From: Fibrobacterota bacterium
GTDB lineage: Bacteria > Fibrobacterota > Fibrobacteria > UBA11236
NCBI GenBank assembly: GCA_023249635.1
Contig: JAHFCH010000011.1
Location: 671-64,670, forward strand
Direction: 5' to 3'
DNA length: 64,000 nt
The notes beneath the pieces are model-generated. The model was not told where the DNA came from and searched no databases. It saw only the letters and a program-made list of their open reading frames with translations. A program made the position numbers and the translations under genes. This document shows positions 5,344 through 62,790 of this stretch, piece after piece; position 1 is the first letter of the stretch; every line of letters starts with the position of its first letter.

Positions 5344-5385
5344 AAAAGCGGCCCATCCGGAGATTCCGGACGGGCCGCTTTTTTT
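5344..5385. terminator. Bidirectional rho-independent terminator (A4 - 14-bp stem with one mismatch - T7)
   Basis: aaaaGCGGCCCATCCGGAgatTCCGGACGGGCCGCttttttt lies between the 3' end of the PEGA gene (+) and the 3' end of tRNA-Cys (-). Confidence 0.6.
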
Positions 5386-5389
5386 CAAG

Positions 5390-5464
5390 TGGAGGCGACA
5401 AGCGGATTCGAACCGCTGAATAAAGCTTTTGCAGAGCTCTCCCTTACCACTTGGGTATGTCGCC
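5390..5464 (-). tRNA. tRNA-Cys (anticodon GCA)
   Basis: Reverse complement reads GGCGACA..TTCGAATCC..TGTCGCC-T-CCA. Acceptor stem pairs 7/7; T-arm AGCGG/TTCGAAT/CCGCT; anticodon stem GAGCT/AGCTT with loop CTGCAAA (anticodon GCA); U discriminator typical of tRNA-Cys; encoded CCA. Confidence 0.75.
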
Positions 5465-8014: not shown

Positions 8015-8020
8015 GGATCA

Positions 8021-8200
8021 TTTGTTTACGCGGCGAGCATGGAGTCGCGAAGCGGTTCCATGGCGAAGCCGCCAAGTTGGATTCAATTTGCGGCGAGCGT
8101 GGAGTTGCGAAGCAACTCCATAGCGAAGCCGCCACTGTTGCTCTTAAATGCGGCGAGCGTGGAGTTGCGAAGCAACTCCATAGCGAAGCCGCCACTGTCA
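8021..8200. repeat. 3 x 60-bp tandem direct repeats, each carrying a 9-bp perfect-stem hairpin (TGGAGTTGC-gaa-GCAACTCCA)
   Basis: Units at 8021, 8081 and 8141; copies 2 and 3 are near-identical and copy 1 is diverged; they start right after the stop of the TPR gene and end 17 nt before the TolB-like start. Confidence 0.85.
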
Positions 8201-8217
8201 GGGAGAAAAGGGTTTCC

Positions 8218-13272: not shown

Positions 13273-14181
13273 TTGCGCATCATCGCCAAAATCGTCGGTT
13301 TTTTCGCCGGCTCCATGCTTCTCGTATCCCTTTTGATCTTTGCCATCGTCCACCTCACTCCCGGCGATATCGCCGAGATCCACAACCTCTCCCCATCCAC
13401 CGCCCATACCCTCCATCTCGATCGTCCCGAGGCCGTGCAATACGTGCTCTGGCTTCGCGATTGCCTCATGCTCGACTTCGGCATTTCCATGGTCAACGGT
13501 ACCAAAGTATCCGCCCTGATCGCCGAGTACGCTCCGCCCACGCTTCTGCTCACTTTCGGCTCCCTGTTCCTCTCCCTGCTCATCGCCATTCCCCTGGGCG
13601 TCTACCGCGGCCTGCGCCCGGTCTCGCCGCTGGGCAAGTTCATCAGCCTCGCGGTGTATACGCTTTCCTCCATCCCGGTTTTCGTGCTCGGGTACATCGT
13701 GCTCGCCGTAGTGTTCGGCTTCTTCCATTTCTTCGTGACCACGCCTCCCGAAGGTGAATTCCATTTCTGGCCCTGGCTCAGCTATTACTCCCTGCCTATC
13801 GGGGTGCTGGCGGTGGGCAACGGGACCATCGGGGAATTCGTCCGCTTCATTTCGCTGGAAGTACAGAACGTCAACGGGGCCATGTTCATCAAGGCCGCCC
13901 GCGCCCGGGGCAGCCGGTTGTGGAAGCATTTCTTCCGCTCCATGATCCTTCCCATCTTCAACATCATCGTCACCAACATGGCCGTGCTCTTGGGCGGTCT
14001 GGTCGTGGTCGAACGCATCTTCAATTTCCACGGCTTGGGTTGGCTCAGTTGGGAGGCCACCCTCAAGCGCGACTTCTCCGTGATCATGGGCATCACCCTG
14101 GTAATGGCTTTCCTGATCCGCGTCTTCATGCTCGCCAACGATTTGCTGGCGGTCTGGCTCGATCCCCGGATGCGCGAATGA
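13273..14181 (+). CDS. ABC transporter permease (OppB/DppB-like)
   Basis: Apparent TTG start; six predicted TM segments; BPD_transp_1-like EAA-region sequence; same strand and order as the SBP gene. Confidence 0.7.
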   Translation: MRIIAKIVGFFAGSMLLVSLLIFAIVHLTPGDIAEIHNLSPSTAHTLHLDRPEAVQYVLWLRDCLMLDFGISMVNGTKVSALIAEYAPPTLLLTFGSLFLSLLIAIPLGVYRGLRPVSPLGKFISLAVYTLSSIPVFVLGYIVLAVVFGFFHFFVTTPPEGEFHFWPWLSYYSLPIGVLAVGNGTIGEFVRFISLEVQNVNGAMFIKAARARGSRLWKHFFRSMILPIFNIIVTNMAVLLGGLVVVERIFNFHGLGWLSWEATLKRDFSVIMGITLVMAFLIRVFMLANDLLAVWLDPRMRE

Positions 14182-17367: not shown

Positions 17368-17395
17368 AGGAACCTGGAAAAATTGAACGGAAAAG

Positions 17396-17426
17396 AAAAA
17401 GCCCCGCGGATGCGGGGCTTTTTGCT
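17396..17426. terminator. Bidirectional rho-independent terminator
   Basis: aaaaaGCCCCGCggatGCGGGGCttttt lies between the convergent 3' ends of the ABC ATPase gene (+) and the Zn-ribbon gene (-). Confidence 0.6.
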
Positions 17427-17451
17427 TTGGAGCGGAAGGCGGGAAGCGGGA

Positions 17452-17844
17452 CTATAAACCGTTGATGAAGTCGTTCACGTCCTTGACGCGATTGAGGTCG
17501 ATCTTCAGGTTGGTTATATCATCGCTGATCAACGGGGTGTCGCGCACCGGAGCGCCGGCCTTATGGGTGGCGCGCGCTTCGGCGGGTTTCACGATCAGGG
17601 AGGTATGCCCCTTGTTGGTCTCGCGGGCGTTGATGTTCTTGAGGATGCCCTGGACGGTGGTCATTTGGAGATTGCCCTGGATCTTCTCGATCTCGCTTTC
17701 GTCGATCTCGAAGGTCTTGCCATAGTAGTACATGAGGGCGGAATTGCACGAGGGGCAATTGAGCACGATCATGTACGCCTCTGATCCTAGAAAGAGTTCG
17801 CTGACCTCTTTGCAGTGGGGGCATTTGACATAGAGGGGTTTCAT
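17452..17844 (-). CDS. Hypothetical zinc-ribbon protein
   Basis: CPHC-x16-CPSC N-terminal Zn ribbon; lower GC than neighbours; no family recognised. Confidence 0.45.
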   Translation of the reverse strand: MKPLYVKCPHCKEVSELFLGSEAYMIVLNCPSCNSALMYYYGKTFEIDESEIEKIQGNLQMTTVQGILKNINARETNKGHTSLIVKPAEARATHKAGAPVRDTPLISDDITNLKIDLNRVKDVNDFINGL

Positions 17845-18008
17845 ATATGCTCCTGACTCCTGTTGTGAAAATACAAAGATCCAGAGCCTCTTGTTTTAAG
17901 TCTATTGCTTAGCCTGGGGCGTGTCAAGTGGAAATATGGCCGGAATCGCCACTTGGACGGTGCCCTGCAGCCCGCATTTGGCGGGCCTTGGAGCGCGTTC
18001 GGGGGTAT

Positions 18009-20249: not shown

Positions 20250-21437
20250 ATGACGTATTCAGAGAAACCCATGATCCTGGTGGTGGAAGATTCCCGCGTG
20301 CTCGCCAAGGTGATCGAGCAACGGCTTTCGCCCAGTTTTCGGGTGGCCATGGCGCATGACGGCGAGGATGCCCTCCGGCAATTGGCCGCCGGCGGTTACG
20401 CCGCCGTGGTTCTCGATCTCGTGCTCCCCAAGATGGACGGATTCGAAGTCCTTCGCGCCATGCGCCAGCAAGGCATTTCCATTCCGGTGATCATCGCCAC
20501 GGCAAAGCCGCGCCAGGCTGTGGAAGGCGATGCCAAGGAATTCGGGGTGGAAGCCATTCTCTCCAAGCCCCTCGATTACGGGGTGCTGACCGATATGCTG
20601 CAGCAGGCGATTTCCAAATCGTCGGCGATGACGGTGGAAGAAGCTGAAGTCAACCGGGCGACCGGCAAGAAGTATCCCTTCCGCCTGGCCAAGCGATGCT
20701 GCTACATCTGCGGATACGAGAAGGTCCAGGTATTCCTGCCTATCAAGGAAGGCTATGTTGAGGATTGGAACCGCGGCTCCTTTCCCCAATACACCAGCAA
20801 GCCCGGTTACGAGGATTGGGATCATCTCAAGACCCTCGTCATGGTCTGCCCGTATTGCTTTTTCGCATCGTCCGATCCCGCCGATTTCGCGGACAGCAAA
20901 GACGCGTCCTACCCTTACAGCGAAGAGTCCAAAAAGATCCTGGCCCGGAGTATTTCCATCCGCAAGCGGCTGGTGCCCGAAGCCCTGGATATCGACCCGC
21001 GCTTCGATCATCCCTACCGCGATCGCGATACCGTGGTGGTGTCCCTGGTGCTGGCGGAAAAATGCTGCAACGGTCTCATCCTGGCCGGCAAGCCCGGTGC
21101 GTATTGCCAGGCAGGCGTGTATACCACCCTGCAGGGCGCGCTCAATTCTTCCACTGCGGAGAAGTACTATCGCGAAGGCTTGATGAGCTTCGAGAACCAA
21201 CTGAAGCATAAGGAGAGCCCCCGGCGCGTGCTGGTACGGACTTACTTCTTCTGCATAGTCCTGAACATGCAGCTCAACCGCACCATCGTCGGCCGCGATA
21301 TCATGAAAAAGGTCGAGGAACTTTACGCCGACGCCCGCTACGAGGAAATCAGCGACGAAGAGCGGGAGTGGCTGATGCGCATCAACCTCATCTGGAAGAA
21401 CGGCTGCGGGTCGGGAGTGCCCCGGGATATCGTGTGA
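20250..21437 (+). CDS. Response regulator: CheY-like receiver fused to a double CxxC zinc-ribbon plus helical output domain (DUF2225-like from memory)
   Basis: Receiver (LVVEDS.., phospho-acceptor D in VVLDLVLPKMDG, K in ILSKP); C-terminal CCYICGYE..x35..CPYCFF plus helical region; no DNA-binding or enzymatic output recognisable. Confidence 0.6.
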   Translation: MTYSEKPMILVVEDSRVLAKVIEQRLSPSFRVAMAHDGEDALRQLAAGGYAAVVLDLVLPKMDGFEVLRAMRQQGISIPVIIATAKPRQAVEGDAKEFGVEAILSKPLDYGVLTDMLQQAISKSSAMTVEEAEVNRATGKKYPFRLAKRCCYICGYEKVQVFLPIKEGYVEDWNRGSFPQYTSKPGYEDWDHLKTLVMVCPYCFFASSDPADFADSKDASYPYSEESKKILARSISIRKRLVPEALDIDPRFDHPYRDRDTVVVSLVLAEKCCNGLILAGKPGAYCQAGVYTTLQGALNSSTAEKYYREGLMSFENQLKHKESPRRVLVRTYFFCIVLNMQLNRTIVGRDIMKKVEELYADARYEEISDEEREWLMRINLIWKNGCGSGVPRDIV

Positions 21438-22513
21438 AACCGGCCGCTGCCAAGCCGCCCTCCTTCGTCGTACATAATTCCAATTCCGAAATCGGCGGAG
21501 CCGAAGCCAGTCTGCTTGCGGCTGTGGCGGTAAACCTCGCGACCGTAGCCGATGCCCGACCGCTTTTCCTGGTACCCGCCGAAGGCGGCCTTTCCCGCGC
21601 CCTTACCGCGCGCGGCTGGGAGTTCCGCGTCCTGCCATGGCCTCGCGGCCTCGCAGCCCTGACCCAGCGGCGTTTGTGGTCGCTGCCCTTGGCTTTGCCG
21701 GGACTGTTGCCTTACCTGTGGCGCTTGCGGGGGGTTTTCCGGGATGCGGACTCCATCTGGTCCAGCGGCGTCAAAAGCCATTTCGCCTGCCTGCTGCTTT
21801 CGCCCTGGCTGCGCGGCCGGCTCCTCTTTGACGTGCGCGATTTCTTCCGCAACCGGCTCATCCGCCGCTCCCTGGCCTTCGCCTCCGCGCGCTTCGGCTG
21901 CCGTATCGCCGCCAACAGCCGGGCCGTGGCCGCGGATTATCCCGGCGCCGAGGTACGTTACCCGCAGGTTACGCTGCGACGTCCCGCCGTGGACCGCCGG
22001 GTTCCTTCTGGACGTCGCGTAATCGCCCACTTGGCCTACTTCGCCCCCTACAAGGGCCAGCATCTGTTCCTGGATTGCGCCCGGGCCCTGCTCGACGCGG
22101 GCGTGGACGCCGAATTCCTGATCATCGGGGACGTGATTTATCCCGCCGAGTCGTATGCGCGCTATCGCGAAGAGCTGTTCGCCCAGGTAGGCCGCTTGCG
22201 CCTTAACGAGCACGTGCGTTTCCTGGGGAAGCTGGATGGCCCGGAGGCGGTACAGGAGATACTGGAGCGGACCGATCTGCTGCTGCACTGCACCACCGAA
22301 CCCGAACCCTTCGGCCGCGCGGTGATGGAAGCCCTGCTATGCGGGTGCGCAGCGGTATGCCATGGGGGCAGCGGCGTGTGTGAGGTGACGGAAGCGGAGC
22401 GGGGATTCCCGGGGTGGATGGGACCGCTCGGGAAGGTGTTGGGGGAGGAGTACGTGAGGGTGCGGTTGAGTGACGATATCGTCGGGCGTCGGGCGTCGGG
22501 CGTCGGGCGTTAA
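21434..22513 (+). CDS. Glycosyltransferase family 1 (GT4-type); 3' end runs into a repeat element
   Basis: GTG start overlapping the upstream stop (GTGA); C-terminal GT1 core (EPFGRAVMEALLCGCAAVC); last ~12 codons (..VGRRASGVGR) are encoded by GTCGGGC heptads of the palindromic element. Confidence 0.6.
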   Translation: MKPAAAKPPSFVVHNSNSEIGGAEASLLAAVAVNLATVADARPLFLVPAEGGLSRALTARGWEFRVLPWPRGLAALTQRRLWSLPLALPGLLPYLWRLRGVFRDADSIWSSGVKSHFACLLLSPWLRGRLLFDVRDFFRNRLIRRSLAFASARFGCRIAANSRAVAADYPGAEVRYPQVTLRRPAVDRRVPSGRRVIAHLAYFAPYKGQHLFLDCARALLDAGVDAEFLIIGDVIYPAESYARYREELFAQVGRLRLNEHVRFLGKLDGPEAVQEILERTDLLLHCTTEPEPFGRAVMEALLCGCAAVCHGGSGVCEVTEAERGFPGWMGPLGKVLGEEYVRVRLSDDIVGRRASGVGR

Positions 22514-22599
22514 AACTGTGGATTGGTCCTTGTGCGGATTCCCGTTTTAACGCCCGACGCCTAGCCGCGCAGCGGCGTACGCCCGACGCCCGACGATAT
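22475..22599. repeat. MITE/REP-like palindromic element, GTCGGGC-heptad family, copy 1
   Basis: Perfect 20-bp terminal inverted repeats (GATATCGTCGGGCGTCGGGCG .. CGCCCGACGCCCGACGATAT); nested perfect 16-bp inverted repeat (CGTCGGGCGTTAAAAC/GTTTTAACGCCCGACG); extra small hairpin GCCGCgcaGCGGC; four tandem GTCGGGC heptads. Confidence 0.75.
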
Positions 22600-34429: not shown

Positions 34430-35440
34430 GTGAGCGAATCCCTTACCGCGGTCCTATCCTATGAGCAAGTGCTCAAGGATGCCCGGGAGTGCGTCGCATC
34501 CGCCCTTGATGAGGTGCATAAGCTGATGCTCGAGGTGGCGGACAGCGCTCCGGGCAAGCTCTCCGGACAACTGAATTCCCTGCTGGTGCGCAAAGGCAAG
34601 CGTATCCGCTCCACTTTCCTGTTCCTGATGGCGGCCAGCGGACGCAACGGCATTTCCGAACGCGCCATTCGCGTCGCGGCAGCCATCGAACTCATCCATC
34701 TGGCCTCCCTGGTCCACGACGACATCATCGATGACAGCGATCTGCGCCGCAACGAGAAGACGGCGCATAAGCGCTGGGGCAACCGCATGGCGGTGTTGCT
34801 GGGCGATTATACCCTGGCCAAGTCCATGGAAATGGTATGGAGCGATCGTGATCATCGGATTCCCCTGAGCCTGTCCAAGGCTTCCAGCCGCCTGATCATG
34901 GCCGAAGTGATGGAAGTGGAAGGGGCCGGCAACGCCGACCTTTCCCCTGAGCAATACTTCGCCGTCATCGAGGGCAAGACCGCGGCCCTCTTGATGGCCT
35001 GCGGGGAATGCGGATCCATCCTCGCCGGTTTCGATGACACAATGGTGCGCGCGGGATTGGAGCTGGGCCGCAATTTCGGAATGGCCTTCCAGATCATCGA
35101 CGATTTGCTCGACTTCGGCTATGGGGCCGAAAACCTGGACAAACGCACCTTTTCCGATCTCAAGAACGGCTACTTCACCCTGCCGCTCATCCTGTACTTC
35201 GAAGGCTGCGACGCCGCCGAGCGCGAACGGATGCTGACCCTGCTCGCCACGGCGGGTTCGGAAAGCACCCAGACCGAAATCAAGCGCCTGCTAGATTCGC
35301 GCATGGCCTTCCAGAAGGCGCGCGATATCGCCATCGAAAAAATCAACGCCTGTATGCCGTTCCTGGAAAGCCTGCCGGAATCGGCGGCTTCGGGACATCT
35401 GAAGAAGGTGTGTCGTTTGATGACGGAGAGGTCCGCATAG
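34430..35440 (+). CDS. Polyprenyl diphosphate synthase (IspB-like long-chain trans-prenyltransferase)
   Basis: AAGGAG RBS then GTG 34430; first DDxxD (LVHDDIIDDSDLRRN), second Asp-rich motif (IIDDLLDF); about 336 aa. Confidence 0.75.
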   Translation: MSESLTAVLSYEQVLKDARECVASALDEVHKLMLEVADSAPGKLSGQLNSLLVRKGKRIRSTFLFLMAASGRNGISERAIRVAAAIELIHLASLVHDDIIDDSDLRRNEKTAHKRWGNRMAVLLGDYTLAKSMEMVWSDRDHRIPLSLSKASSRLIMAEVMEVEGAGNADLSPEQYFAVIEGKTAALLMACGECGSILAGFDDTMVRAGLELGRNFGMAFQIIDDLLDFGYGAENLDKRTFSDLKNGYFTLPLILYFEGCDAAERERMLTLLATAGSESTQTEIKRLLDSRMAFQKARDIAIEKINACMPFLESLPESAASGHLKKVCRLMTERSA

Positions 35441-35469
35441 GCGGAACCTCCGGGGATTTGTCCGGGGAA

Positions 35470-35545
35470 AGGTTTAAGGTTTAAGGTGGGTGGGTCCCGT
35501 AGGCCCGGTCCAATTCAACCCCCTTAAACCTTAGACCTTAACCTA
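35470..35545. repeat. Palindromic element, GGTTTAA-heptad family, copy 1
   Basis: AGGTTTAAGGTTTAAGGTGGG ..30 nt.. CCCTTAAACCTTAGACCTTAACC; long imperfect hairpin between convergent polyprenyl synthase (+) and mltG (-); a near-identical family member sits at 54594-54681. Confidence 0.7.
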
Positions 35546-36637
35546 TCTCATCTTCTTCTTCCCCGGATTATCCACTCCCCGCTTCGCCCGATTCGCCGCG
35601 GCCACGTCCTTGAAGCGGACATGGTCCGAATTGTCGACGGAGAAGAAATGCTCCCGGGAGCCGTCATCCTTCGCCACGAAGTACATCTTGTCGGTTTGCG
35701 GAGGGCGCAGGGCCGCGCGCAAGGCGCCGCGTCCGGGATTGGCGATGGGGCCGGGCGGCAGGCCCGTGAACTTGCGGGTATTATACGGCGAGTCGCAGTT
35801 GAGATCCGAGACCAGCAGCGGTCCCGTAGGCTTATGCACGGCGTATCGGACCGTGGGGTCGGCGCCCAGGCTCCAGCCTTGGTTCAGGCGGTTGTAGAAG
35901 ACCCCGGCGATGGGTTCCTGCTCCGCGGGCACGGCGGCTTCCTTCTCGACGATTGAGGCCAGGGTGACCCAGCCGCGCTGCCCGTACTTCCGATACACGG
36001 GGGACGCGAGGTCGAACTCCCTTTCCACCGCCAGGAAACGGCGCGTCATCACTTTGAGGATGTCGCGTTCCGTAACCTTCCAGGGTAACACGTAGGTTTC
36101 CGGGAACAGATAGCCTTCCAGATCCGGGGCGTCCAATCCGCATGCCTTGGCGAAGGCCGGGTCGTGGACCAGGAATTCGAACTTGAGGCTGTCGAGGGGG
36201 AACTTGGCCTTGAGGATGGAGAAGATCTCGTAGGAGGCCTTCCCCTCGGGAATGGTGATCATCTGCGTCGCCATCTTGCCGCTCGTGAGCTTCCAGGACA
36301 TATCCATGGCCGAGTTGGACGGACGGACGTAGAAATAACCCGCCCGGATCTTCTTGTCCTGGCGGGTGAAGCGCAGGAAGAGGCGGAACACGGTGGCGTT
36401 GGGGATGAGGCCTTTGGCCTGGAGGTCTTGGGAGAGGGTGGCCAGGGATGCTTTGGCGGGCACTTCGTAGAGCACGTTGCCGCTAACGGGATCGGCTTCC
36501 AAGCCGGTGACCGATGCGGGCTTGGGGATGGATTTGGCGGTGAGCACCCAAATCACGGCGCCGGCAGAAACGGCGATGACCAGGAGCGCCGCCAAGCTTC
36601 CCGAAAACGAGAATCCCTTTTTCCGTTTCTTAGCCAT
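35543..36637 (-). CDS. mltG: Endolytic murein transglycosylase (YceG family)
   Basis: N-terminal TM anchor then YceG-like domain (..GYLFPETY.., ..LTLASIVEKEA..) full length. Confidence 0.8.
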   Translation of the reverse strand: MAKKRKKGFSFSGSLAALLVIAVSAGAVIWVLTAKSIPKPASVTGLEADPVSGNVLYEVPAKASLATLSQDLQAKGLIPNATVFRLFLRFTRQDKKIRAGYFYVRPSNSAMDMSWKLTSGKMATQMITIPEGKASYEIFSILKAKFPLDSLKFEFLVHDPAFAKACGLDAPDLEGYLFPETYVLPWKVTERDILKVMTRRFLAVEREFDLASPVYRKYGQRGWVTLASIVEKEAAVPAEQEPIAGVFYNRLNQGWSLGADPTVRYAVHKPTGPLLVSDLNCDSPYNTRKFTGLPPGPIANPGRGALRAALRPPQTDKMYFVAKDDGSREHFFSVDNSDHVRFKDVAAANRAKRGVDNPGKKKMR

Positions 36638-48515: not shown

Positions 48516-50669
48516 TCAGTCCTTTTTCGCCAGGTAATTGTGGTAGTAGTGCTTGTAGTACCCGTAGGAACTATAGCCCTTGGTGATGTCCACATCGTTC
48601 AGGATGCAACCGAGCATGCGGGCGTTCACGTTGCGCAACGCCTGCAGGGTACGCGAGCTTACCGCGATGCTGGTCTTGTTCGCGCGGATCACCAGCACCA
48701 CGCCGTCCAGCTTGGTGGCCAGGATGGCGGCGTCGGTAACGGCGATGACCGGGGGGGTATCGAAAAGGATGTAGCGGAAACGCTTCTTCAGCTCGTCCAG
48801 GAAGGTGTCCATCTTCTTGGAACCGAGCAGCTCGGCCGGGTTGGGCATATAGGCGCCCGCGGTCATCACCTGCAGATTGGTTCCGGGAAGGTTGCGGCAC
48901 ACCTCGTCGAGGGTATTGGTGCCCGCGAAAAGTTCGCCGAAACCGGGACCGCGATCGAGGCCGAAAAGGTGATGGTTCACGGGGCGACGCAGGTCGGTAT
49001 CGATCACCAGGGTGGGTTCCCCCTGCTGCGCGAAGGAAAGGGCCGTATTGGCCATCGTCAGCGATTTGCCTTCGCCGGGACCGCTGCTGGTGATCAGCAA
49101 TGTCTGGATGGCCTTGTCCGGGCTGGAGAAGACGATATTGGTACGCAGCGAACGGTACGATTCCGCGACTACGCTTTCCTCGTTCTGCGGCCCCATCATC
49201 AGGCCCGGGTACTTGTTGCGTATCTGCTGCTTCTTGCCCTTGGTGAAAGTACGTTTGACCTCGATATCCGATTTCTTGGGGTTGATATGGGGGATGGTGC
49301 CCAACAGCGTCAGGCCCAGCATCTTCTCCACGTCGTCCGGCGACTTGACCGTATCGTCCATGAACTCGCGCAGGATGGAAAGCCCGATGCCGAAGACCAG
49401 GCCCACCAGCAGGGAGACCGCGTAGAAGACCATATCCTTGCGGGGCACGGGCTCGGTCGGCAGTTGGGCGTCGTCCACCAGCTTCAACCCGCCGGACTTG
49501 GATTCCAGCTGGATGGTCGCGTCTTCCAGGCGTTCCGACAGGCGCTGATGGGTGGCGATATAGCGGGCCAGCAGATTGTCGATCTGGGTCAGCTCGAACT
49601 CCTCCTGGCCCAGCTTGGGATGGTTCTCGCGGTAGGTGATGATGGCGCGCTTGAAGGCGTCCAGCCGGGCGCGCTTCATGTTCATTTCCGCTTCCGAACT
49701 CGCCAATTCCTTGCGGATGGATTGCCACTGGTTCAGCAGCCCGATGTCCTGCTGGGTATCGCTGCCCTTGGTCAGCTTCACCAGTTTGGTTTCGATTATC
49801 GCCATGTCCTGGCTCAGTTTGCTGTCGGCGGTGAGGGTGATGCCCAGGCGCATCATCTTCTCCTTCTCCTTCTCCAGCACCTTCATCTGTGCCCGCAGGC
49901 TGTCGATGGACTTCTCATTGCCGCTGGCCGCGGGCTTGTTGATGGTGTTGTCCAAGGTCTTGAAGTAGCTCCGCTTGGCTTCCAGATTGGCCTTGTCCAA
50001 TTCGAATTTCACCAGCTCCTGCTGGTAGTTCTTCTCCAAGGCATCCAGGCCCGCCGCGTCGCCGATGCTCTGGAGCGAAGAGATGTCCGACTTGCGATTG
50101 CGTTCCAGCTGGATTTCGTCGCGTTTCTTGATGCAGACCTCGATCTGCTCCTTGATGGCGTCGATGGCCTTTACCGCCTCCTCGTTCTCCACCTTGCGGC
50201 AGAATACGATGAGGCTGTCGGTGGCGACCTTTACCAGCCGGTAACTGAGGTTGGCGTTGTGGGTCTTGCTCGAAATGGTGAAGAAGGATTCCACCGTACC
50301 TTCGTCCACATGCAGGTTGTCGCTGATGAATTCCTTCTGCTTCTTGGTCACGCCCGCCTTGGCCAAATCACCTGCGGTCGCCTGTACCATGCGGTCCAGG
50401 AAGGCCTGGCTCTGGAAGATGGTCTTGTAGAATCCGATGCCGCGCTGGTTGTCGTCATTCGACAACAGCACCGAGGCCGCGTTTACAGGCGCCTTGTCCA
50501 TTACCAACTGGCTGGAGGTGATGTAATAGTCGGGCAGGCGCTTGATGAACCACCAGGTGGGCCCCAGGAACGCGGCGATGGAGAACAGCAGGATATAACG
50601 GCCCTTGATGAGGAGCCGGAAGTAGTCGCCGAACTGGAGTTCGCGTTGCGGTTTGGGCGCTTCGCTCAT
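48516..50669 (-). CDS. wzc: Polysaccharide co-polymerase / BY-kinase (Wzc-like tyrosine autokinase)
   Basis: Two TMs flanking a long coiled-coil periplasmic region; cytoplasmic P-loop (SSGPGEGKS), Walker B (LVIDTDLRRP); C-terminal Tyr cluster (GYSSYGYYKHYYHNY). Confidence 0.8.
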   Translation of the reverse strand: MSEAPKPQRELQFGDYFRLLIKGRYILLFSIAAFLGPTWWFIKRLPDYYITSSQLVMDKAPVNAASVLLSNDDNQRGIGFYKTIFQSQAFLDRMVQATAGDLAKAGVTKKQKEFISDNLHVDEGTVESFFTISSKTHNANLSYRLVKVATDSLIVFCRKVENEEAVKAIDAIKEQIEVCIKKRDEIQLERNRKSDISSLQSIGDAAGLDALEKNYQQELVKFELDKANLEAKRSYFKTLDNTINKPAASGNEKSIDSLRAQMKVLEKEKEKMMRLGITLTADSKLSQDMAIIETKLVKLTKGSDTQQDIGLLNQWQSIRKELASSEAEMNMKRARLDAFKRAIITYRENHPKLGQEEFELTQIDNLLARYIATHQRLSERLEDATIQLESKSGGLKLVDDAQLPTEPVPRKDMVFYAVSLLVGLVFGIGLSILREFMDDTVKSPDDVEKMLGLTLLGTIPHINPKKSDIEVKRTFTKGKKQQIRNKYPGLMMGPQNEESVVAESYRSLRTNIVFSSPDKAIQTLLITSSGPGEGKSLTMANTALSFAQQGEPTLVIDTDLRRPVNHHLFGLDRGPGFGELFAGTNTLDEVCRNLPGTNLQVMTAGAYMPNPAELLGSKKMDTFLDELKKRFRYILFDTPPVIAVTDAAILATKLDGVVLVIRANKTSIAVSSRTLQALRNVNARMLGCILNDVDITKGYSSYGYYKHYYHNYLAKKD

Positions 50670-51613
50670 TTTTTGATCACCGAGGTAATCACGAACCAGG
50701 CCGTGAGGAACGTGACCATGTCGCGCATGATATCGAGGGTCTTGGTCCAAGTGACCACCTTGGCGTACATGATGATCATGTCGCCCTCTCCCAGCAGGGG
50801 CAGGTCTTCGGTCTTACCGTTGTCGATGAACTTCTGCATATCCAGCACGTAGTCGGCCTTTTGCCCGCCCAGCGCCGAGATGATGCGCACCTTGTGCATG
50901 TTGGCGTCCGGGGCCGGCCCGCCGGCCAGGTAGAGCATGTCGAATACGGAAGCCTGTTCGCCCACGGGGTAGAACCCGGGCTTGCTGACCGCCCCGAGGA
51001 TTTTCACGTACTTGGATTTCTTGGAGGAGAGCAGAATGATGCGATCGCCATCGTACAAGGTCGGCAACAGCGTCAGGTCGCCCGAGCTCAGGAACTTCTG
51101 CAAGTCGTAGTAGCTGGCGTTCTCGTCGCCCTGGTTCTTACGCACGATCTTGACGCGCTGCAGGTCCGCGGTCTCGAGGCTGCCGCCGGCGGCCAGCATT
51201 ACTTCCTGCAGGCTGGCCTTGGGGGGCATCATCAGTACGCCGGGTTTCTTGACCTGGCCCAGCACGTAAAGGGAAATGGGATTCTCGGTCAATACGCTCA
51301 CCAGCACCATCGGCGACTCCACCACTTTGGCGAGTTTGTAGGTGAGGATGTCTTGCAACTCGCTGGTGGTCTTGTCGACCACGGGTACGTCCTGGTAGAG
51401 CGGGTAATCGATGGTGCCGTTATCGTTCACGCGCACGATCTGGGAAAGCTCTTTGTCGTTCTTCACCACGATGTTCAAGGTCATCCCGGATTTGATCACG
51501 GTCGCGGCGCAAGGCGAACTCAAAATGAAAAGTGAAAACTGAAAAATGAAGACGGAAAGGAATGCGAATCCTGTCCCGATGGCGGTTTGCACTTTGAAAT
51601 TTTCACTTTTCAT
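50666..51613 (-). CDS. wza: Polysaccharide export outer-membrane protein (Wza-like)
   Basis: Signal peptide, Poly_export-like region (..TLNIVVKNDKELSQIVRVNDNGTIDYPL..), two SLBB-like segments; ATGA overlap with wzc. Confidence 0.75.
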   Translation of the reverse strand: MKSENFKVQTAIGTGFAFLSVFIFQFSLFILSSPCAATVIKSGMTLNIVVKNDKELSQIVRVNDNGTIDYPLYQDVPVVDKTTSELQDILTYKLAKVVESPMVLVSVLTENPISLYVLGQVKKPGVLMMPPKASLQEVMLAAGGSLETADLQRVKIVRKNQGDENASYYDLQKFLSSGDLTLLPTLYDGDRIILLSSKKSKYVKILGAVSKPGFYPVGEQASVFDMLYLAGGPAPDANMHKVRIISALGGQKADYVLDMQKFIDNGKTEDLPLLGEGDMIIMYAKVVTWTKTLDIMRDMVTFLTAWFVITSVIKK

Positions 51614-51628
51614 TTTTCACTCTAGGCT
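51518..51628. repeat. AT-rich palindromic element, GTGAAAA-heptad family, copy 1 (spans wza start codon and signal-peptide codons)
   Basis: Left arm AAAATGAAAAGTGAAAACTGAAAAATGAAGA (encodes FIFQFSLFIL on the minus strand); right arm TTTCACTTTTCATTTTTCACTC (contains the wza ATG); 17+ bp of complementarity between arms. Confidence 0.7.
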
Positions 51629-51667
51629 TTGTGGGCTATCCGATTATACTCCCTGGATCGCTTTCGC

Positions 51668-52717
51668 CTAGGCCGGCTTGAATATGAAAGGCGATTTCAT
51701 CTCCACCGGACCTCCCGAAGAAGGCGGGAATATCCAACGTTTGATGCGACGTAAAAGCTCGGCGGTGAAATCCGGATCATCCAACGTGGTTTCCGAACGC
51801 AGTATGGATACGTTGGAAACGGTGCCATCCTCTTCGATAACTATCAATACGGATACCTTGCCCTCCAAAGCCGGATTGGATTTGAGACGTTCTTCATAGA
51901 GCATACTGACCATGGATTGTTTTTTCGAAATAAAGGCCGCGACTTCGCCCGGGCTCCGGTTTCCCGTGAATTTGGCCGACTTGTCGGTGGCGGTGGGGCG
52001 TTCCGTATCGGTCACCCCGATCTTGCCTCCCACGGCCGATTTCGCGTTCTGGAAGCCGTGGACCATGTTTTCGATGCCGCTGGTGCTGCCCACCGCTTCG
52101 CCTTTCATTACGGTTCCCTTGGGCGATCCTTCCCGGTTGAAATCGCCCTTTTTGCCGTCGAATTTCGTCAAGCCCTCGATGCTTCCCAGGCGAGCGTCGA
52201 GATCACCGAAGCCCGCGAAACGATCATGTCCGCCGCCCGGTCCCGCTTTGCCTACGGTCCTGCCGATGGCGCCCGGGCCTTTTCCGGAGAGGATGGAGAG
52301 TACGGCCGCCTTGGTGATGCGTTCCTGCACCTGGGTTATCTGCTGGGTCACGGTAGCGCGCGAACGCTCTATGCGTGCGAGGGCCGAAGCCTCCCCTTTG
52401 CCCGCGCCCGGAGCGGGACGCGCCTGGCCGGTCGAGCCCTTGGGGGCCGTCGGCTTGGGGATGGCCTTCCCCGGGGGCTTGAGCGGCATGATGATCTTGG
52501 AGACGCGATCGGAAAGATCTTCCAGGGTCGGCTTCTCGAGCTTGCTGTAGTCCACGTTGCGTATGCCCACCAGCACCATCATGAACAGCATCAGGCACGC
52601 CACGAAACTGGTAATGGCCGGAACGTCGATGTTGTCGAACATCCCGCCTTTGTAGCCGGGATTGCGATCTTCCGGCGGCCGGGGCTTGGGCGTTTCCTGT
52701 ACGGGGCTATTCGACAT
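51668..52717 (-). CDS. tonB: TonB-family energy transducer
   Basis: N-terminal TM, Pro/Lys/Gly-rich spacer, C-terminal TonB domain (GKVSVLIVIEEDGTVSNVSILRSE..). Confidence 0.7.
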   Translation of the reverse strand: MSNSPVQETPKPRPPEDRNPGYKGGMFDNIDVPAITSFVACLMLFMMVLVGIRNVDYSKLEKPTLEDLSDRVSKIIMPLKPPGKAIPKPTAPKGSTGQARPAPGAGKGEASALARIERSRATVTQQITQVQERITKAAVLSILSGKGPGAIGRTVGKAGPGGGHDRFAGFGDLDARLGSIEGLTKFDGKKGDFNREGSPKGTVMKGEAVGSTSGIENMVHGFQNAKSAVGGKIGVTDTERPTATDKSAKFTGNRSPGEVAAFISKKQSMVSMLYEERLKSNPALEGKVSVLIVIEEDGTVSNVSILRSETTLDDPDFTAELLRRIKRWIFPPSSGGPVEMKSPFIFKPA

Positions 52718-53198
52718 CGCGCTTCATCACCGCTAAGGAAAAACTGCTGTAGCCGTTATCGCCGCAGGTGGCGAGTACCTTCTGTAAAAGCCAGTAGGGG
52801 ATGAGGTGATCGCCCTGGATGGTCAGCTTGCCGTTGAACTCGACGCTCTTGTCGTACTCGGCGATATCCTCGGTCTGCTTACGCTTGTCCTCCAGGAACC
52901 GCGCCAGGCCCGGGATGTCGTTACCGGGCCTTTCCTGCTCCTCGGTGACGAGCGCCACGGGATTGCCTTCCACCATGATGTGTTTGGTGCTGATGGAAAT
53001 GTTGAGGGTGTTCTCCGGCTTGATCTTGGAAGTACTCATGGGCAGTTCCAGATTCTTGGTCTGGGTGACTATCTCGCCCTCGGAGGAAAAATTCTTGAGT
53101 AGGAAGAACACCAGGCAGATGAGCACGTCCACCAGGGACGTCATCGCCGGCTTGGCCGATTCCGTCGGCTGCCTACGGCGCTTGCGCCCGGTCTTCAT
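52707..53198 (-). CDS. exbD: Biopolymer transport protein ExbD/TolR
   Basis: Single N-terminal TM (SLVDVLICLVFFLL) then ExbD-like periplasmic domain. Confidence 0.75.
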   Translation of the reverse strand: MKTGRKRRRQPTESAKPAMTSLVDVLICLVFFLLKNFSSEGEIVTQTKNLELPMSTSKIKPENTLNISISTKHIMVEGNPVALVTEEQERPGNDIPGLARFLEDKRKQTEDIAEYDKSVEFNGKLTIQGDHLIPYWLLQKVLATCGDNGYSSFSLAVMKRDVE

Positions 53199-53731
53199 TG
53201 GTACACGCCTCCGGACAACAGGATGTTCGGGAACCTCTGCTCGCGCATCACGTCCATGGTGGTGATGATGTCCTGGTACACCACGGCGGAGTCTATCAAG
53301 AGCACCACGTCTTCGGCGCTGGGATATTCCTCCTTGAGCTTCTTCATGAACTGCCCCAGCCGCGGGTAATCGAAATCCTTCGTTCCTTTGGGAATGGGAT
53401 CGAGTTTGCGTCCCTCGCCGATCACCTGGAACCCGTTCTCGGAAACCAGCACCGTGATATCGACGCTCGGGGCCTTTTCGGTCGAATCGGCGGCCGCCTT
53501 GGCCTGGTCCTCGCCGCCGCCGCCGCTTTGGGGCGGCAGGTTGAATTTGATCACCGCCAATTGCGTGAACACCACCATGGTCACCAGGAACGAGATGAGG
53601 ATGATGAGCATGTTCATCATCGGCGTCATGTCCAGATCGATGGGCGCGCCCATGGCGGACCCGCCTTTGGACGCGATGCCTCCGCGTTGTTTACCGCCTC
53701 CGGGGGCGGGACCGGCAACCGAACCGCTCAT
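53195..53731 (-). CDS. exbD: Biopolymer transport protein ExbD/TolR (second paralogue)
   Basis: IDLDMTPMMNMLIILISFLV TM then ExbD-like domain; 4-nt overlaps at both ends. Confidence 0.7.
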   Translation of the reverse strand: MSGSVAGPAPGGGKQRGGIASKGGSAMGAPIDLDMTPMMNMLIILISFLVTMVVFTQLAVIKFNLPPQSGGGGEDQAKAAADSTEKAPSVDITVLVSENGFQVIGEGRKLDPIPKGTKDFDYPRLGQFMKKLKEEYPSAEDVVLLIDSAVVYQDIITTMDVMREQRFPNILLSGGVYQ

Positions 53732-54429
53732 CCAGCATGCCCGGTCGCGGCGGGACCGGCCGGAGCCGCGCCAGGCGGGGCTTTCGGGCTGGTCTTGCGT
53801 TGGGCATTCATGAAATTCACCAGCCGGAGCACGGTCTCATCGATTTGTTCCAGCAACTGGTTCGATTTCGATCCCAGCCAGGTGAAGGAAGCCATGCAGA
53901 TCATGGCGGCGATGAGCCCGAGCGCCGTGGCGTTCAGCGCTAAGGTGATACCGCGCGCCAGTAGTTTGCTTTTCTGGGAGGGGTCGGCGGCTTCGAGCGC
54001 GGCAAAGGCTTCCTGCAGGCCGAAAATGGTTCCGAGCAGTCCTACCAGGGTGCAAAGGTTGGCGAGCAGTCCCAGGTAATGGGTGCGTTTCTGCAAGCGT
54101 GGGACTTCCCGCAGCGACACTTCTTCCAGGGCATCCTTGATTTCTTCCGCGGTGGCGGCCTGCTCGTATTTCCAGATGCCCGCTTCCAGGATCAGGCCAA
54201 GGGGGGTGCCGGTCTGATTGCACAGCTTGCGGGCGTCGGCGATCTTATCCTTGCGGATCAAGGCCGTGGTGTCGGCCAGCAGCTTCTTGGAATTGATCCG
54301 GCATTTGATGAAGAAGAACCAGATCCGTTCGAGCATTATGGAGAGCCCCAGCCCCAAAAGGCCGAGAATCATGTACTCCACGGCCCCGCCCTCGTCGACG
54401 AATTTGGCAATTTTCATCAGGATTTCCAT
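53728..54429 (-). CDS. exbB: MotA/TolQ/ExbB proton-channel protein
   Basis: Three TMs with the conserved C-terminal channel region (..GLLGTIFGLQEAFAAL..TALGLIAAMICM..); ATG 54429 chosen. Confidence 0.75.
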   Translation of the reverse strand: MEILMKIAKFVDEGGAVEYMILGLLGLGLSIMLERIWFFFIKCRINSKKLLADTTALIRKDKIADARKLCNQTGTPLGLILEAGIWKYEQAATAEEIKDALEEVSLREVPRLQKRTHYLGLLANLCTLVGLLGTIFGLQEAFAALEAADPSQKSKLLARGITLALNATALGLIAAMICMASFTWLGSKSNQLLEQIDETVLRLVNFMNAQRKTSPKAPPGAAPAGPAATGHAG

Positions 54430-54593
54430 AAAACCTCTGGCTTTCAAAAAGGGACAGGTCGGCATTGGGATTATCGTATTCCTGGGGATTTGGAAGCAAC
54501 GGAGCGGGTGGGTGAACTCGGGGTAGGCCGGGAACTTACGGTTGGTTGACCCGCGGAAGCGCCAGGGGAAGGGGGGAGGCTGCCCCAGGGAAT

Positions 54594-54681
54594 GGGTTTA
54601 AGGTCTAAGGTTTAAGGTGGGGGAATTCAACGCCGTGAACATTCCCCTTAAACCTTTAACCTTAAACCTTAAACCTTCTTC
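54594..54681. repeat. Palindromic element, GGTTTAA-heptad family, copy 2
   Basis: GGTTTAAGGTCTAAGGTTTAAGGTGGGGG - 20 nt - CCCCTTAAACCTTTAACCTTAAACCTTAAACC; upstream of exbB and of the divergent gene starting 54817. Confidence 0.7.
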
Positions 54682-54816
54682 AATCCCCGGTTTTCCCCTG
54701 TTTTCCCACAAATTTCCTCCTTTTCCAGCCCCGGTTCCCTTGTGCAAACAGCCCCTTCGCGGTATATTGCTTACTTATACGGACACGGTTTCCCCAACCG
54801 GTTTAAGGAAGGATTT

Positions 54817-55275
54817 ATGAAGAAGACCATCGCGTTCCTGTTCCTCGCTTTCGCATCGGTCACCCTCGCGGGGTCTAAGACTGAAATGACCAACGTTACC
54901 CGTATCAAGTCGGGCGGCGCCACCATCTACAAGACCGAAGCCGGGGATGAATCGGACAAGGTCGCGGACGCCGGCACCGGCGATGAGGTCACTCTACTGA
55001 AACAGGGCAAAGGCCGTTCGCTGATCAAGACCTCCGGCTCCATCAAGGGCTGGGTCGACAACAGCACCATCGAAAAGGTGAAGATTTCCAGCGGCGGTAC
55101 CCATAACCTGAAAGACGTGGAAGTCGTGGGCTGGCTGGACAATCCTTCCGCTGTCTACATTTTGGACAATTCCAATCCGGATTTGAACGCGCTGCCCATC
55201 GATCGCAATTTCAACAATGAAATCATCGAGAAAAAGGACCGCGAAGAGGTCGAACGCACGTACGACGAAAACTGA
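54817..55275 (+). CDS. Hypothetical secreted protein (SH3b-like beta domain?)
   Basis: AAGGAAGGA RBS; signal peptide MKKTIAFLFLAFASVTLAGS; lower GC than flanks; domain guess weak. Confidence 0.45.
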   Translation: MKKTIAFLFLAFASVTLAGSKTEMTNVTRIKSGGATIYKTEAGDESDKVADAGTGDEVTLLKQGKGRSLIKTSGSIKGWVDNSTIEKVKISSGGTHNLKDVEVVGWLDNPSAVYILDNSNPDLNALPIDRNFNNEIIEKKDREEVERTYDEN

Positions 55276-55368
55276 GTATATTCTAATTATACAGAAGCGG
55301 CCGGGCTGGACCCGGCTCCGCTGAAGGGAAGGGCCTCCAAGGAGGTCCTTTTTCTTTGGGGGTGGTTT

Positions 55369-56364
55369 TTACCAACCTTGCTTGCGTATGCTCGTCTCGC
55401 CAATCAATTCGCGCATCCCTTTCTTCAGCTCTTTTAAGCCGTCGCCCGTGAGGGCGGAGGTGCGTAGAATGGGGCAGCCTTCCTTCTTGAAGCGCTTGTC
55501 GATCTTGAACTCGCCCAAGTCGCATTTGTTCATGGCGATCAGCTTCGGCTTCTGCAGCAATAGGGGATGGAACTTCTCCATCTCGGCGCGTAACACCTTG
55601 TATTGGCCGTACGGATCCTCGCCGCTCGCGTCAATGATATAGGCCAGGCAGAAGCTCCGCTCGATGTGGCGCAGGAACCGGTGGCCCAGGCCTTTGCCTT
55701 CGGCAGCGCCTTCGATGAGACCGGGGATGTCCACCAGTACGAAGCTTTGCCCGGGCGCGACTTCGACCAGGCCCAGGATGGGCTTCAGAGTGGTGAAAGG
55801 ATAATCGGCGACCTTGGGCGTGGCCGCGGAAAGCTTGCGGATGAGCGAGCTTTTTCCCGCGTTGGGGAAGCCCACCAGGCCGCAGTCCGCCACCAGCTTA
55901 AGCTCGAGCAGCAGTTTGCGCGATTCACCGGGATCGCCCGGGGTGGATTGCCGCGGCGCGCGATTGGTGCTGCTTTTGAAGGCGGCATTGCCGACTCCGC
56001 CACGGCCGCCTTGCGCCACGGTGTAGCGTTGGCCGGCCTCTTTCAGGTCGGACAGCAGTTCTCCCGTGGCGAGATCCTTCACCAGCGTTCCCACCGGAAC
56101 CGTAATCTCAATGTCCTTACCATTACGGCCGGTACACAGAGAGGGTTCTCCCGGACCGCCCGCATCGGCGCGGAATATGCGTTTGTTCCCGATATCGTAA
56201 AGGGTATGTATTTCGGTGGTGGCGACCACCACGACATGGCCTCCCCGGCCGCCGTTTCCGCCGCTGGGTCCCCCGAGGGGAACGAATTTTTCCCGACGGA
56301 AGCTGACCATGCCTTTTCCGCCGTGGCCCGCGTGAACTTCCAGCTTGGATTCATCAATGAACAT
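55369..56364 (-). CDS. obg: GTPase Obg/CgtA
   Basis: Obg fold N-terminus (MFIDESKLEVHAGHGGKGMVSFRREKFVPLGGPSGGNGGRGG), G1 GFPNAGKSS, G3 DIPG, G4 NKCD. Confidence 0.85.
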   Translation of the reverse strand: MFIDESKLEVHAGHGGKGMVSFRREKFVPLGGPSGGNGGRGGHVVVVATTEIHTLYDIGNKRIFRADAGGPGEPSLCTGRNGKDIEITVPVGTLVKDLATGELLSDLKEAGQRYTVAQGGRGGVGNAAFKSSTNRAPRQSTPGDPGESRKLLLELKLVADCGLVGFPNAGKSSLIRKLSAATPKVADYPFTTLKPILGLVEVAPGQSFVLVDIPGLIEGAAEGKGLGHRFLRHIERSFCLAYIIDASGEDPYGQYKVLRAEMEKFHPLLLQKPKLIAMNKCDLGEFKIDKRFKKEGCPILRTSALTGDGLKELKKGMRELIGETSIRKQGW

Positions 56365-61878: not shown

Positions 61879-61903
61879 AACGAGCCCGCGTTGGTTCGAG
61901 CGG

Positions 61904-62030
61904 CATATCGTCGGGCGTCGGGCGTACGGGGCGAAGCGCCCCTAAGCGTCGGGCGTAAATGCGAAAATGCTCCCATTTTCTTGCATTTACGCCCGACGCC
62001 GAACGCCCGACGCCAAACGATGCGCTGCTA
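61904..62030. repeat. MITE/REP-like palindromic element, GTCGGGC-heptad family, copy 2 (inverted orientation, more degenerate)
   Basis: CATATCGTCGGGCGTCGGGCG .. GGGGCGaagCGCCCC .. CGTCGGGCGTAAATGC / GCATTTACGCCCGACG .. CGCCCGACGCCAAACGATG; same terminal 20-mer as copy 1 on the left, degenerate on the right. Confidence 0.7.
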
Positions 62031-62663: not shown

Positions 62664-62790
62664 AGGGCTAAAAGTGAAAAAGGAAAAGTGAAAAATTAAA
62701 AAATCAAATTTTTGTATGTCGCTGGCGGGTTAGGGTCCGCCCTCCCGGTTTTTCACTTTCCATTTTTCACTTTGATTTTTTAGCCCCAGC
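62664..62790. repeat. AT-rich palindromic element, GTGAAAA-heptad family, copy 2
   Basis: CTAAAAGTGAAAAAGGAAAAGTGAAAAATT .. GC-rich centre (GGCGGGttagggtCCGCC) .. TTTTTCACTTTCCATTTTTCACTTTG; the right arm is 22/24 identical to the wza-overlapping copy. Confidence 0.7.

Follow-up and report, generated by a model that had tools for sequence, protein, structure and literature searches.

A 64,000-nucleotide stretch of a Fibrobacterota metagenome-assembled genome (MAG; contig JAHFCH010000011.1, positions 671 to 64,670; hereafter the window) contains two palindromes, copy 1 and copy 2, whose arms are tandem GGTTTAA heptads. Named homologs likewise put its source in Fibrobacterota. It is probable that the two copies represent a lineage-specific dispersed family, namely the inverted-pair form of the intergenic heptanucleotide repeats, with a behaviour of repetitive extragenic palindromic (REP) type, and that their position on either side of an exb-tonB-polysaccharide gene cluster is incidental. 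The tempting reading of the copies as brackets of an operon, put forward in the original prediction for the whole exb-tonB-exopolysaccharide-lipopolysaccharide unit, is thereby removed, and the palindromes are assigned to a known class of repeats.

Both palindromes were confirmed in the sequence, copy 1 at 35469-35543 and copy 2 at 54595-54677, with arms of tandem GGTTTAA heptads and a G/C-rich closing segment; the likeness to REP elements noted earlier seems reasonable, and the G+C content of the window was 61% instead of the 65% first given. A search for GGTTTAAGGT with at most one mismatch gave 13 matches in the window against 1.7 expected, a number reached in 0 of 100 shuffles, and 11 of the 13 fell in copies 1 and 2. 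One of the only two matches outside the copies lies in the conserved ribosome-binding region of a 152-aa open reading frame (ORF; 54800-54816, reading GGTTTAAGGAAGGATTT) and is compatible with chance. The inverted-repeat arms were 24 nt long in each case, 88% complementary and 23 nt apart in copy 1 (35469-35492 / 35516-35539), and 92% complementary and 33 nt apart in copy 2 (54595-54618 / 54652-54675). Copy 1 has arrays of 2.5 and about 3 heptad units, and copy 2 arrays of 3.5 and 4 units. As RNA, copy 1 folded with -43.9 kcal/mol on the plus strand (z -5.2 vs shuffles) and copy 2 with -48.5 and -54.6 kcal/mol on the plus and minus strands (z -6.7 and -7.5); the corresponding folds as single-stranded DNA gave z -3.8 for copy 1 and z -6.0 for copy 2. 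The copies also have a common left/right asymmetry, AAGG-T-GGG on one side and CCCC-TTAAACC on the other, and, judged from this sequence likeness beyond the heptads, they are homologous.

Two further resemblances were set aside. The 8-mer AATTCAAC, common to both loops, was not used as evidence of homology, its positions within the loops being different. An outward extension of copy 1 (CCGGGGAA...TTCCCCGG), which resembles the flanks of copy 2, was rejected because its right-hand part is the native Lys/Pro-rich tail of MltG present in all homologs. Among the MltG homologs of the clade (P0001-P0045; window 35543-35580), this Lys/Pro/Gly-rich tail varies from about 5 to 30 residues; the tail encoded in the window is among the shortest and ends exactly at the copy 1 hairpin.

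An inverted-repeat scan of the window returned six hairpins with 7-nt-periodic arms, E1 to E6, made from three unrelated heptads with two hairpins per heptad, copies 1 and 2 being E2 and E4. The description of a two-copy family therefore stood for GGTTTAA hairpins within the window, which also holds four hairpins of like architecture with different heptads. The arms of the six hairpins account for 11 of the 12 period-7 arrays in the window, in which no arrays at periods 8-12 were found. Between the two copies of each type, homology extends past the heptads themselves (E2/E4, E1/E5 and E3/E6). E1 and E5 have the same layout of outer heptad stem, side hairpin and inner stem; the sequences of the side and inner stems differ yet still pair, and 6 of the 41 predicted pairs were changed on both sides with 0 broken. 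E1, copy 1 and E6 lie between convergent gene ends, and copy 2 alone occupies a divergent spacer. The left arm of E1, (CGTCGGG)x4 at 22476-22513, provides the last ~12 codons and the TAA stop of a GT1 glycosyltransferase gene (21368-22513, plus strand), so that a heptad array here forms a protein C-terminus, and E5 sits 21 nt past a kinase gene. The E1/E5 unit contains CGTC, the tag of one REP superfamily (PMC3733652). Of the Rfam 15 covariance models, only a tRNA reached its gathering score in the window, and at E <= 1 no match overlapped any of the six hairpins.

The architecture of these hairpins was then compared across bacteria. A scan of one genome per species for AAGGTTTAAGG, 14-44 nt and CCTTAAACCTT gave at least 96 loci; the figures that follow for foreign loci and hairpins hold among the matches listed. 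GGTTTAA-armed hairpins were listed from Bacteroidota, Acidobacteriota, Desulfobacterota, Planctomycetota, Rhodothermales, Chloroflexota, Cyanobacteria and others, including the cultivable hosts Pedobacter, Fibrella, Terrimonas and Planctomicrobium, and no match to the pattern was found in 2.9 million viral contigs. The possibility that all matches are unrelated hairpins with a common 11-mer was true of some (terminators with T-runs and a Desulfobacterales repeat), and 49 of 97 pattern matches have period-7 arrays on both arms, reaching well past the 11-mer that the pattern required. Results showed 251 merged period-7 arrays in 95 loci from other genomes vs ~26 in local shuffles, against 90 vs 28 at period 6 and 28 vs 2 at period 8 in the same loci. 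At least 149 distinct heptads occurred in the fetched loci, and in 56 of 96 loci unrelated heptad arrays lay near the GGTTTAA one. The class is thus specific to period 7 and independent of the heptad sequence. An explanation of the heptad by stop codons in all six frames was dropped because it is true for GGTTTAA and fails for CGTCGGG.

The arrays also revealed what is conserved in the class. Inverted pairs comprised 118 of 278 period-7 arrays. The complementarity between arms (0.84) exceeded the identity between units (0.77) and was the higher of the two in 54 of 60 hairpins (p = 3e-10). A variant unit on one arm has its mirror image at the matching position on the other, so that the palindrome is preserved more faithfully than the periodicity; paralogs keep their stems by compensatory changes. 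As to position, 18 of 50 classifiable hairpins were in convergent spacers, compared with 79 of 435 background spacers (odds ratio 2.5, p = 0.005), and divergent spacers held hairpins at the background rate. The adjacent stop codon was at a median distance of 8 nt (39 of 59 within 20 nt) and the start codon at 44 nt (15 of 41 within 20 nt; stop vs start p = 0.004). The class abuts or overlaps stop codons and is enriched between convergent genes. Eight Desulfobacterales or 'delta proteobacterium' loci (L014, L016, L021, L024, L067, L068, L091 and L093) stood apart: a conserved element surrounds the matched palindrome, reading tcaAAGGTTTAAGGAGCG...CGCTCCTTAAACCTTtg and then ttgaatatca..acttgaaa with no heptad periodicity, and its appearance is that of an independent dispersed repeat or of a mobile-element terminus.

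The gene neighbourhood of copies 1 and 2 was as the original prediction had it. By Pfam, a polyprenyl synthase gene on the plus strand converges on a YceG/MltG gene on the minus strand at copy 1, and a MotA/ExbB gene on the minus strand adjoins copy 2. All genes between the copies are on the minus strand, in the order exbB-exbD-exbD-tonB-wza-wzc-flippase-glycosyltransferases-wzy-mltG, an uninterrupted array of ~17 genes with the GGTTTAA copies just outside the first and last of them. Copy 1 would fall in the 3' untranslated region of the polyprenyl synthase gene, and the last base of its right arm overlaps the mltG stop codon. Copy 2 had been placed immediately upstream of exbB; the actual gap to the annotated ATG at 54429, itself 12 codons downstream of the start of a 245-aa ORF, is 165 nt, and the ATG of the divergent 152-aa ORF (54817) lies 139 nt from the other end of the copy. 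Copy 2 is located beyond the conserved exbB -10-like box (alignment A4) and is therefore probably outside the exbB transcript. There is a conserved TATAAT (-10-like) box after the tonB stop codon, suggestive of a wza promoter of its own; the array is therefore probably more than one transcription unit. E3 lies inside the supposedly bracketed array, between tonB and wza.

Orthologous sites in relatives were examined at both ends of the array. In L106-L109, where MltG is 74-78% identical, mltG converges on the polyprenyl synthase gene across a spacer of 84-107 nt, and none of these spacers contains a heptad hairpin. In L110, L111 and a third contig (MltG 81-83%), a different gene is found downstream of mltG after a spacer of 2-70 nt with no copy 1 hairpin. 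A metagenome scan for MltG relatives gave only 31-34% identical proteins and was not used. L106 (groundwater, MltG 78%) carries (AAATTGA/AAATTGC)n hairpins at 2444-2597 and 17778-17902, as does L107 at 13763-13887; the L106 hairpins lie within a polysaccharide gene cluster and between pseudouridine synthase and Ppx genes, sites that are empty in the window.

At the exbB end, L112-L114 (ExbB 86-89% identical) have conserved the gene order obg, small ORF, exbB-exbD-exbD-tonB-wza-wzc-flippase, and their small-ORF/exbB spacers align with that of the window at both ends, promoter-like boxes included. The site of copy 2 is occupied in these relatives by telomere-like (GGGGTTA/GGGATTA/GGGGCTA/CTAGGGG)n arrays facing (CCCTAAC)n across a centre of 110-150 nt, none of them GGTTTAA. 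A side hairpin divides the left array in two, and the L113 site, the only one folded, forms a branched hairpin. Such GGGGTTA-type arrays contain the necessary G-tracts and could form G-quadruplexes. Decayed matches to the GGGGTTA array flank copy 2 in the window (GGGGATTGAAGAAGG on one side, TTCCCTGGGG...CCCCCCTTCCCCTGG on the other), and copy 2 thus seems to have arrived later, within an element already present. There is no GGTTTAA hairpin at the relatives' sites, and both copies are therefore gains specific to the lineage of the window. Which hairpin, if any, a given site holds changes between relatives whose proteins are 75-90% identical.

These results bear directly on the bracketing. The check proposed with it, whether relatives without the elements lack or rearrange the locus, was run: relatives without them keep the gene order obg-exbBD-tonB-wza…mltG, and the gene downstream of mltG differs in three contigs. 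A functional bracket is disfavoured on four counts: relatives have an intact locus without the elements; the array itself contains E3, a member of the same class; a promoter-like box separates tonB from wza; and copy 2 sits beyond the exbB -10-like box. The occurrence of GGTTTAA-armed hairpins over many phyla, for the most part next to the stops of unrelated genes, tells against a meaningful bracket as well, and two hairpins of one type ~19 kb apart are unremarkable given six in 64 kb.

The hairpin within the array, E3, overlaps a coding region. The wza-like ORF (315 aa, Poly_export plus SLBB) starts at an ATG within the E3 left arm, and the right arm (TTCATTTTTCAGTTTTCACTTTTCATTTT) encodes VFIFQFSLFIL, a hydrophobic, Phe-rich signal-peptide core. 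The same arrangement of hairpin and wza was found in L113 (3640-3765), and L114 and L115 have an ordinary signal peptide without a hairpin. About 25 of 91 Wza homologs start MKNEKFKVQ...FFIFHFSFC (N-termini counted by eye; a strict script pattern flagged only 2), which is exactly what (ATGAAAA)n and (TTTTCAT)n give when translated. G+C content at third codon positions in wza was 0.47-0.50 in codons 1-32 vs 0.86-0.87 in the remaining codons, and 0.97 in a hairpin-free relative. The wza AUG (51613-51611) is paired in the consensus stem of E3. Taken together, these results point to a nucleotide-level constraint on a hairpin covering the translation start of a polysaccharide exporter. E3 may be a hairpin controlling translation that has been recruited as coding sequence, and it offers a testable case of a heptad repeat that is both a translation-initiation hairpin and signal-peptide coding sequence.

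Each member of the family is made of two facing arrays of a few 7-nt units with a centre that varies. For the family as a whole, the following course of events would fit. Units may expand and contract by slipped-strand mispairing, and the arms may be held complementary by selection on the hairpin, by hairpin-templated correction, or by both; quasi-palindrome template switching is an established mutational route. Copies would spread by some copying process. Copy 1 is presumably transcribed at the end of both convergent mRNAs, those of polyprenyl synthase and mltG, as a putative shared 3'-end hairpin that could limit read-through and/or decay by 3' exonucleases, and it would be within reach of a ribosome terminating on mltG. 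REP elements reportedly stabilise upstream mRNA and, within ~15 nt of a stop codon, are said to affect translation termination (work attributed to Newbury, 1987, and to Liang, Rudd and Deutscher, 2015). Copy 2, between two putative divergent promoters and probably set within what is left of an older GGGGTTA-type hairpin, may have no transcript-level role, or may act at the level of DNA.

Several observations weigh against the assignment of the copies to a dispersed repeat family whose flanking of the cluster is incidental. Copy 2 adjoins no stop codon. The site upstream of exbB carries a heptad hairpin in 4 of 4 genomes compared, so the site may do something, which speaks against 'incidental' for copy 2. 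Copy 1 is followed by CTATCTCATC on the plus strand and TTTCCCCGG on the minus strand, and copy 2 by CTTCAATCC on the plus strand; there is no U-tract after either, a terminator scan of 50500-55500 flagged neither copy 2 nor E3, and classical intrinsic termination is therefore unlikely. RNA hairpins should show a bias to arm mismatches of the G·U kind on the sense strand; these numbered 34 vs 20 of the opposite kind, a trend only (p = 0.076). The foreign loci were chosen with one heptad pattern and their gene contexts come from crude ORF calls, the source genome was examined as 64 kb of a 66.6-kb contig, and the 7-nt length of the unit is left unexplained by any analysis here. Two classical bidirectional intrinsic terminators, each a G+C-rich stem between an A-run and a T-run, do occur in the window at 5344-5382, just downstream of a tRNA gene (5393-5464, minus strand), and at 17391-17428; the genome therefore uses ordinary terminators as well.

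Among other explanations, non-autonomous mobile DNA of the MITE or REPIN type deserves the most weight and is still unlikely. A transposase from elsewhere in the genome would act on the hairpin or its termini and copy it into further intergenic spacers, with the heptad arms as its terminal inverted repeats. Such an origin would agree with the dispersed homologous copies in one genome, including E1 and E5 with their 81% identity over ~130 nt, with the differences in presence at orthologous sites and with the apparent nesting of copy 2 in the decayed remains of another heptad hairpin; REPINs are likewise long hairpins (PMC3116915, PMC2817692) spread by RAYT transposases. Reading of the flanks of all six hairpins showed no target-site duplication, although a very short or decayed one could escape, and a Pfam scan of 29 window ORFs, among them the neighbours of every hairpin, showed no transposase domain (~two dozen others were unscanned). 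Unit number and loop vary between copies, the viral contigs contain no match, and one 7-nt architecture with so many unrelated heptads would need very many cognate enzymes or one sequence-blind enzyme. On how copies spread, the mobile-DNA account and the repeat-family assignment overlap.

A bolder idea, which we regard as speculative and rather unlikely, is that heptad-armed hairpins form a distinct pan-bacterial, self-renewing structured repeat. Its mechanism would have an intrinsic 7-nt step (e.g. out-of-register pairing with fill-in, or a dedicated enzyme), sites would be kept while the heptad is replaced, as at the exbB-upstream site, and hairpins would be co-opted as coding or regulatory sequence, as in the wza stem conserved across a Fibrobacterota clade.

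It is quite improbable that the elements are binding sites of a DNA- or RNA-binding regulator, one protomer per heptad, with copy 2 controlling the divergent exbB and small-ORF promoters and copy 1 serving as a second site of the regulon. The position of copy 2 between two conserved divergent promoter-like regions, and the heptad hairpin found there in four related genomes, would suit such a role. Paired heptanucleotide arrays of Geobacter have been annotated as putative global regulator sites (PMC2700814), the recO promoter of Nostoc was altered in its activity when heptamer repeats were deleted from reporter constructs (bioRxiv 10.1101/2022.06.06.494920), and a cold-shock protein binds a single heptamer (see the discussion in PMC4679880). 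However, three unrelated heptads have the same architecture in one 64-kb window, relatives with conserved promoters have different heptads at the exbB site, and most members of the class stand just after stop codons, not at promoters. Palindromic symmetry is moreover kept better than unit identity, the opposite of what selection by a unit-reading protein would give.

Action at the level of DNA, with the RNA hairpins as a by-product, is improbable to a still greater degree. Extrusion of a cruciform or slipped structure would absorb negative supercoiling at copy 2 or pause replication. A+T-rich arms favour cruciform extrusion, and those of both copies stand out in a genome of 61% G+C and fold stably as single-stranded DNA. 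In the twin-domain model, negative supercoils accumulate between divergent promoters, and copy 2 is probably placed where the model predicts them. Other members have G+C-rich arms (CGTCGGG, GGGGTTA), however, and the abutment of stop codons and overlap of coding ends point to a link with transcripts or translation. Least of all do we expect a matched boundary pair, terminator plus insulator, delimiting one exb-tonB-polysaccharide transcription unit: the placement of the GGTTTAA copies just outside the first and last genes would suit it, but the array and its surroundings persist in relatives that lack copy 1 and have no GGTTTAA element at the copy 2 site, E3 lies within the array, the box after tonB makes more than one unit probable, copy 2 probably stands outside the exbB transcript, and with six heptad hairpins in 64 kb, two per type, the spacing is ordinary.

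Table 1 Coordinates of the heptad hairpins, their neighbouring genes and promoter-like boxes in the window, and of the arrays at the copy 2 site in relatives
Feature	Position	Strand	Description
Copy 1 (E2) left arm	35469..35487		AA GGTTTAA GGTTTAA GGT; begins 28 nt past polyprenyl synthase stop
Copy 1 centre	35488..35523		G/C-rich closing segment GGGTGGG...CCCC and non-repetitive loop with small inner stem
Copy 1 right arm	35524..35543		TTAAACC TTAGACC TTAACC; final base is first base of mltG TAG stop complement
Copy 2 (E4) left arm	54595..54618		GGTTTAA GGTCTAA GGTTTAA GGT
Copy 2 centre	54619..54647		GGGGGAATTCAACGCCGTGAACATTCCCC, a small hairpin in its own right
Copy 2 right arm	54648..54677		TTAAACC TTTAACC TTAAACC TTAAACC TT
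E1, branched hairpin, (CGTCGGG)n arms	22476..22599		Inverted-repeat scan, folding
E5, E1 paralog in opposite orientation	61899..62029		81% identity over ~130 nt to E1 reverse strand
E3, (GTGAAAA/ATGAAAA)n and (TTTTCAC/TTTTCAT)n arms ((AAAGTGA)n-type)	51522..51630	-	Overlaps wza start codon (51613-51611) and signal-peptide coding region
E6, same heptad family as E3	62665..62786		Purely intergenic, between convergent ends of unknown ORF (+, ends 62639) and M24 peptidase gene (-, ends 62809)
Polyprenyl synthase gene	34430..35440	+	Pfam PF00348; 336-aa gene call; stop 35438-35440
YceG/MltG gene	35543..36637	-	Pfam PF02618; identical protein P0001; stop 35543-35545 touches copy 1
exbB, first gene of minus-strand array	53728..54429	-	Pfam PF01618; P0121; 233 aa as annotated
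-10-like box upstream of exbB, between exbB and copy 2	54470..54475	-	GATAAT here, TATAAT in relatives; alignment A4; putative promoter element
-35/-10-like boxes of divergent 152-aa ORF	54740..54768	+	TTGTGC, 17 nt, TATATT; conserved; putative promoter elements
Copy 2 orthologous site arrays	L112 5640-5851; L113 595-764; L114 9672-9867		G-rich heptads facing (CCCTAAC)n

One further repeat was noted in the window, a 21-nt palindrome (TGGAGTTGCGAAGCAACTCCA) that occurs twice, at 8100-8120 and 8160-8180, 60 nt apart and apparently within a coding region (ORF 8011-9519).

Heptanucleotide repeats have been noticed repeatedly since 1990, when the cyanobacterial STRR repeats were reportedly described by Mazel et al. 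The present elements fall outside the definitions of REP/REPIN elements, intrinsic terminators and Rfam families. An intrinsic terminator has a G+C-rich stem of ~5-15 bp, a loop of 3-8 nt and a U-tract. Like such Rho-independent terminators, copy 1 is a stable hairpin directly downstream of convergent genes; unlike them, the copies have a stem of at least 24 bp, an interior of 23-33 nt, A+T-rich composition and no U-tract, and copy 2 is downstream of no gene. Of the features of MITEs, inverted arms are present and no flanking direct repeat was seen by reading. REP, BIME and REPIN elements (PMC2817692, PMC3116915, PMC3733652) are similar in being dispersed intergenic hairpins that are over-represented behind stop codons and in convergent spacers, vary between relatives and preserve structure. 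REP units differ in being imperfect palindromes of 20-40 nt with a GTAG/CGTC tag, no 7-nt periodicity and a tie to RAYT, whereas heptad arms are not palindromic alone and copies 1 and 2 have neither GTAG nor CGTC at their ends.

The closest counterparts are intergenic heptanucleotide repeats of other bacteria. TAACTGA and other heptamer arrays occur in Cyanobacteria, Beggiatoaceae and some Bacteroidetes (MacGregor 2015, PMC4679880), and heptanucleotide units are the most abundant class of long simple sequence repeats, for which polymerase-related slippage has been proposed as the origin of the 7-nt unit (Mrazek 2007, as summarised in PMC4679880). The cyanobacterial STRR, TAACTGA and TTTTGAA repeats resemble the present elements in their tandem 7-nt units, intergenic location, several units per genome and patchy distribution across phyla, and some of them overlap start codons as E3 does. 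They are mostly single direct arrays, often just upstream of starts, whereas the elements described here are inverted pairs found mainly at gene 3' ends. Geobacter metallireducens has arrays of four to five heptanucleotide units in several classes, mostly paired (Aklujkar et al. 2009, PMC2700814). As in our elements, the paired arrays have been drawn as strand-switching hairpins, with several consensus units per genome; the Geobacter units are different (MTYCTGA, GGACCGG) and were interpreted as regulator sites without a test (PMC2700814).

In Xanthomonas, GGGAATC arrays form 70-75 convergent pairs per genome, which overlap stop codons or lie very near them and are mostly transcribed (Rehm et al. 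2015, PMC4692102), and their unit numbers vary between species (PMC4692102). The GGTTTAA elements agree with them in the 7-nt unit, the few tandem copies and the facing arrays on opposite strands able to form a stem-loop, and also in their dispersed intergenic location, for copy 1 near stop codons, in unit numbers that vary between related species and in a host of high G+C content. Both copies have the 7-nt unit in at least 2-3 tandem copies and the facing opposite-strand arrays (fold z -3.8 to -7.5) that define the Xanthomonas/Geobacter type; with respect to a stop codon within ~50 nt or overlapped, copy 1 is 28 nt from one and touches another, and copy 2 stands in a divergent spacer. The copies have the defining features of intergenic heptanucleotide inverted pairs, genome-wide copy number and, for copy 2, nearness to a stop codon aside, and are therefore assigned to that known class. 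This extends the class to Fibrobacterota and to an A+T-rich unit, and the wider comparison shows that heptanucleotide hairpins are period-7-specific and sequence-independent, keep pairing better than periodicity and stay near stop codons in at least half a dozen phyla; the cultivable hosts would make mechanism and function directly testable. The GGTTTAA elements differ from the Xanthomonas arrays in being A+T-rich, with only GG per unit and hence no G-quadruplex, the property stressed by Rehm et al., in belonging to a Fibrobacterota MAG, with copies counted in the window, and in sharing one genome region with several unrelated heptads.

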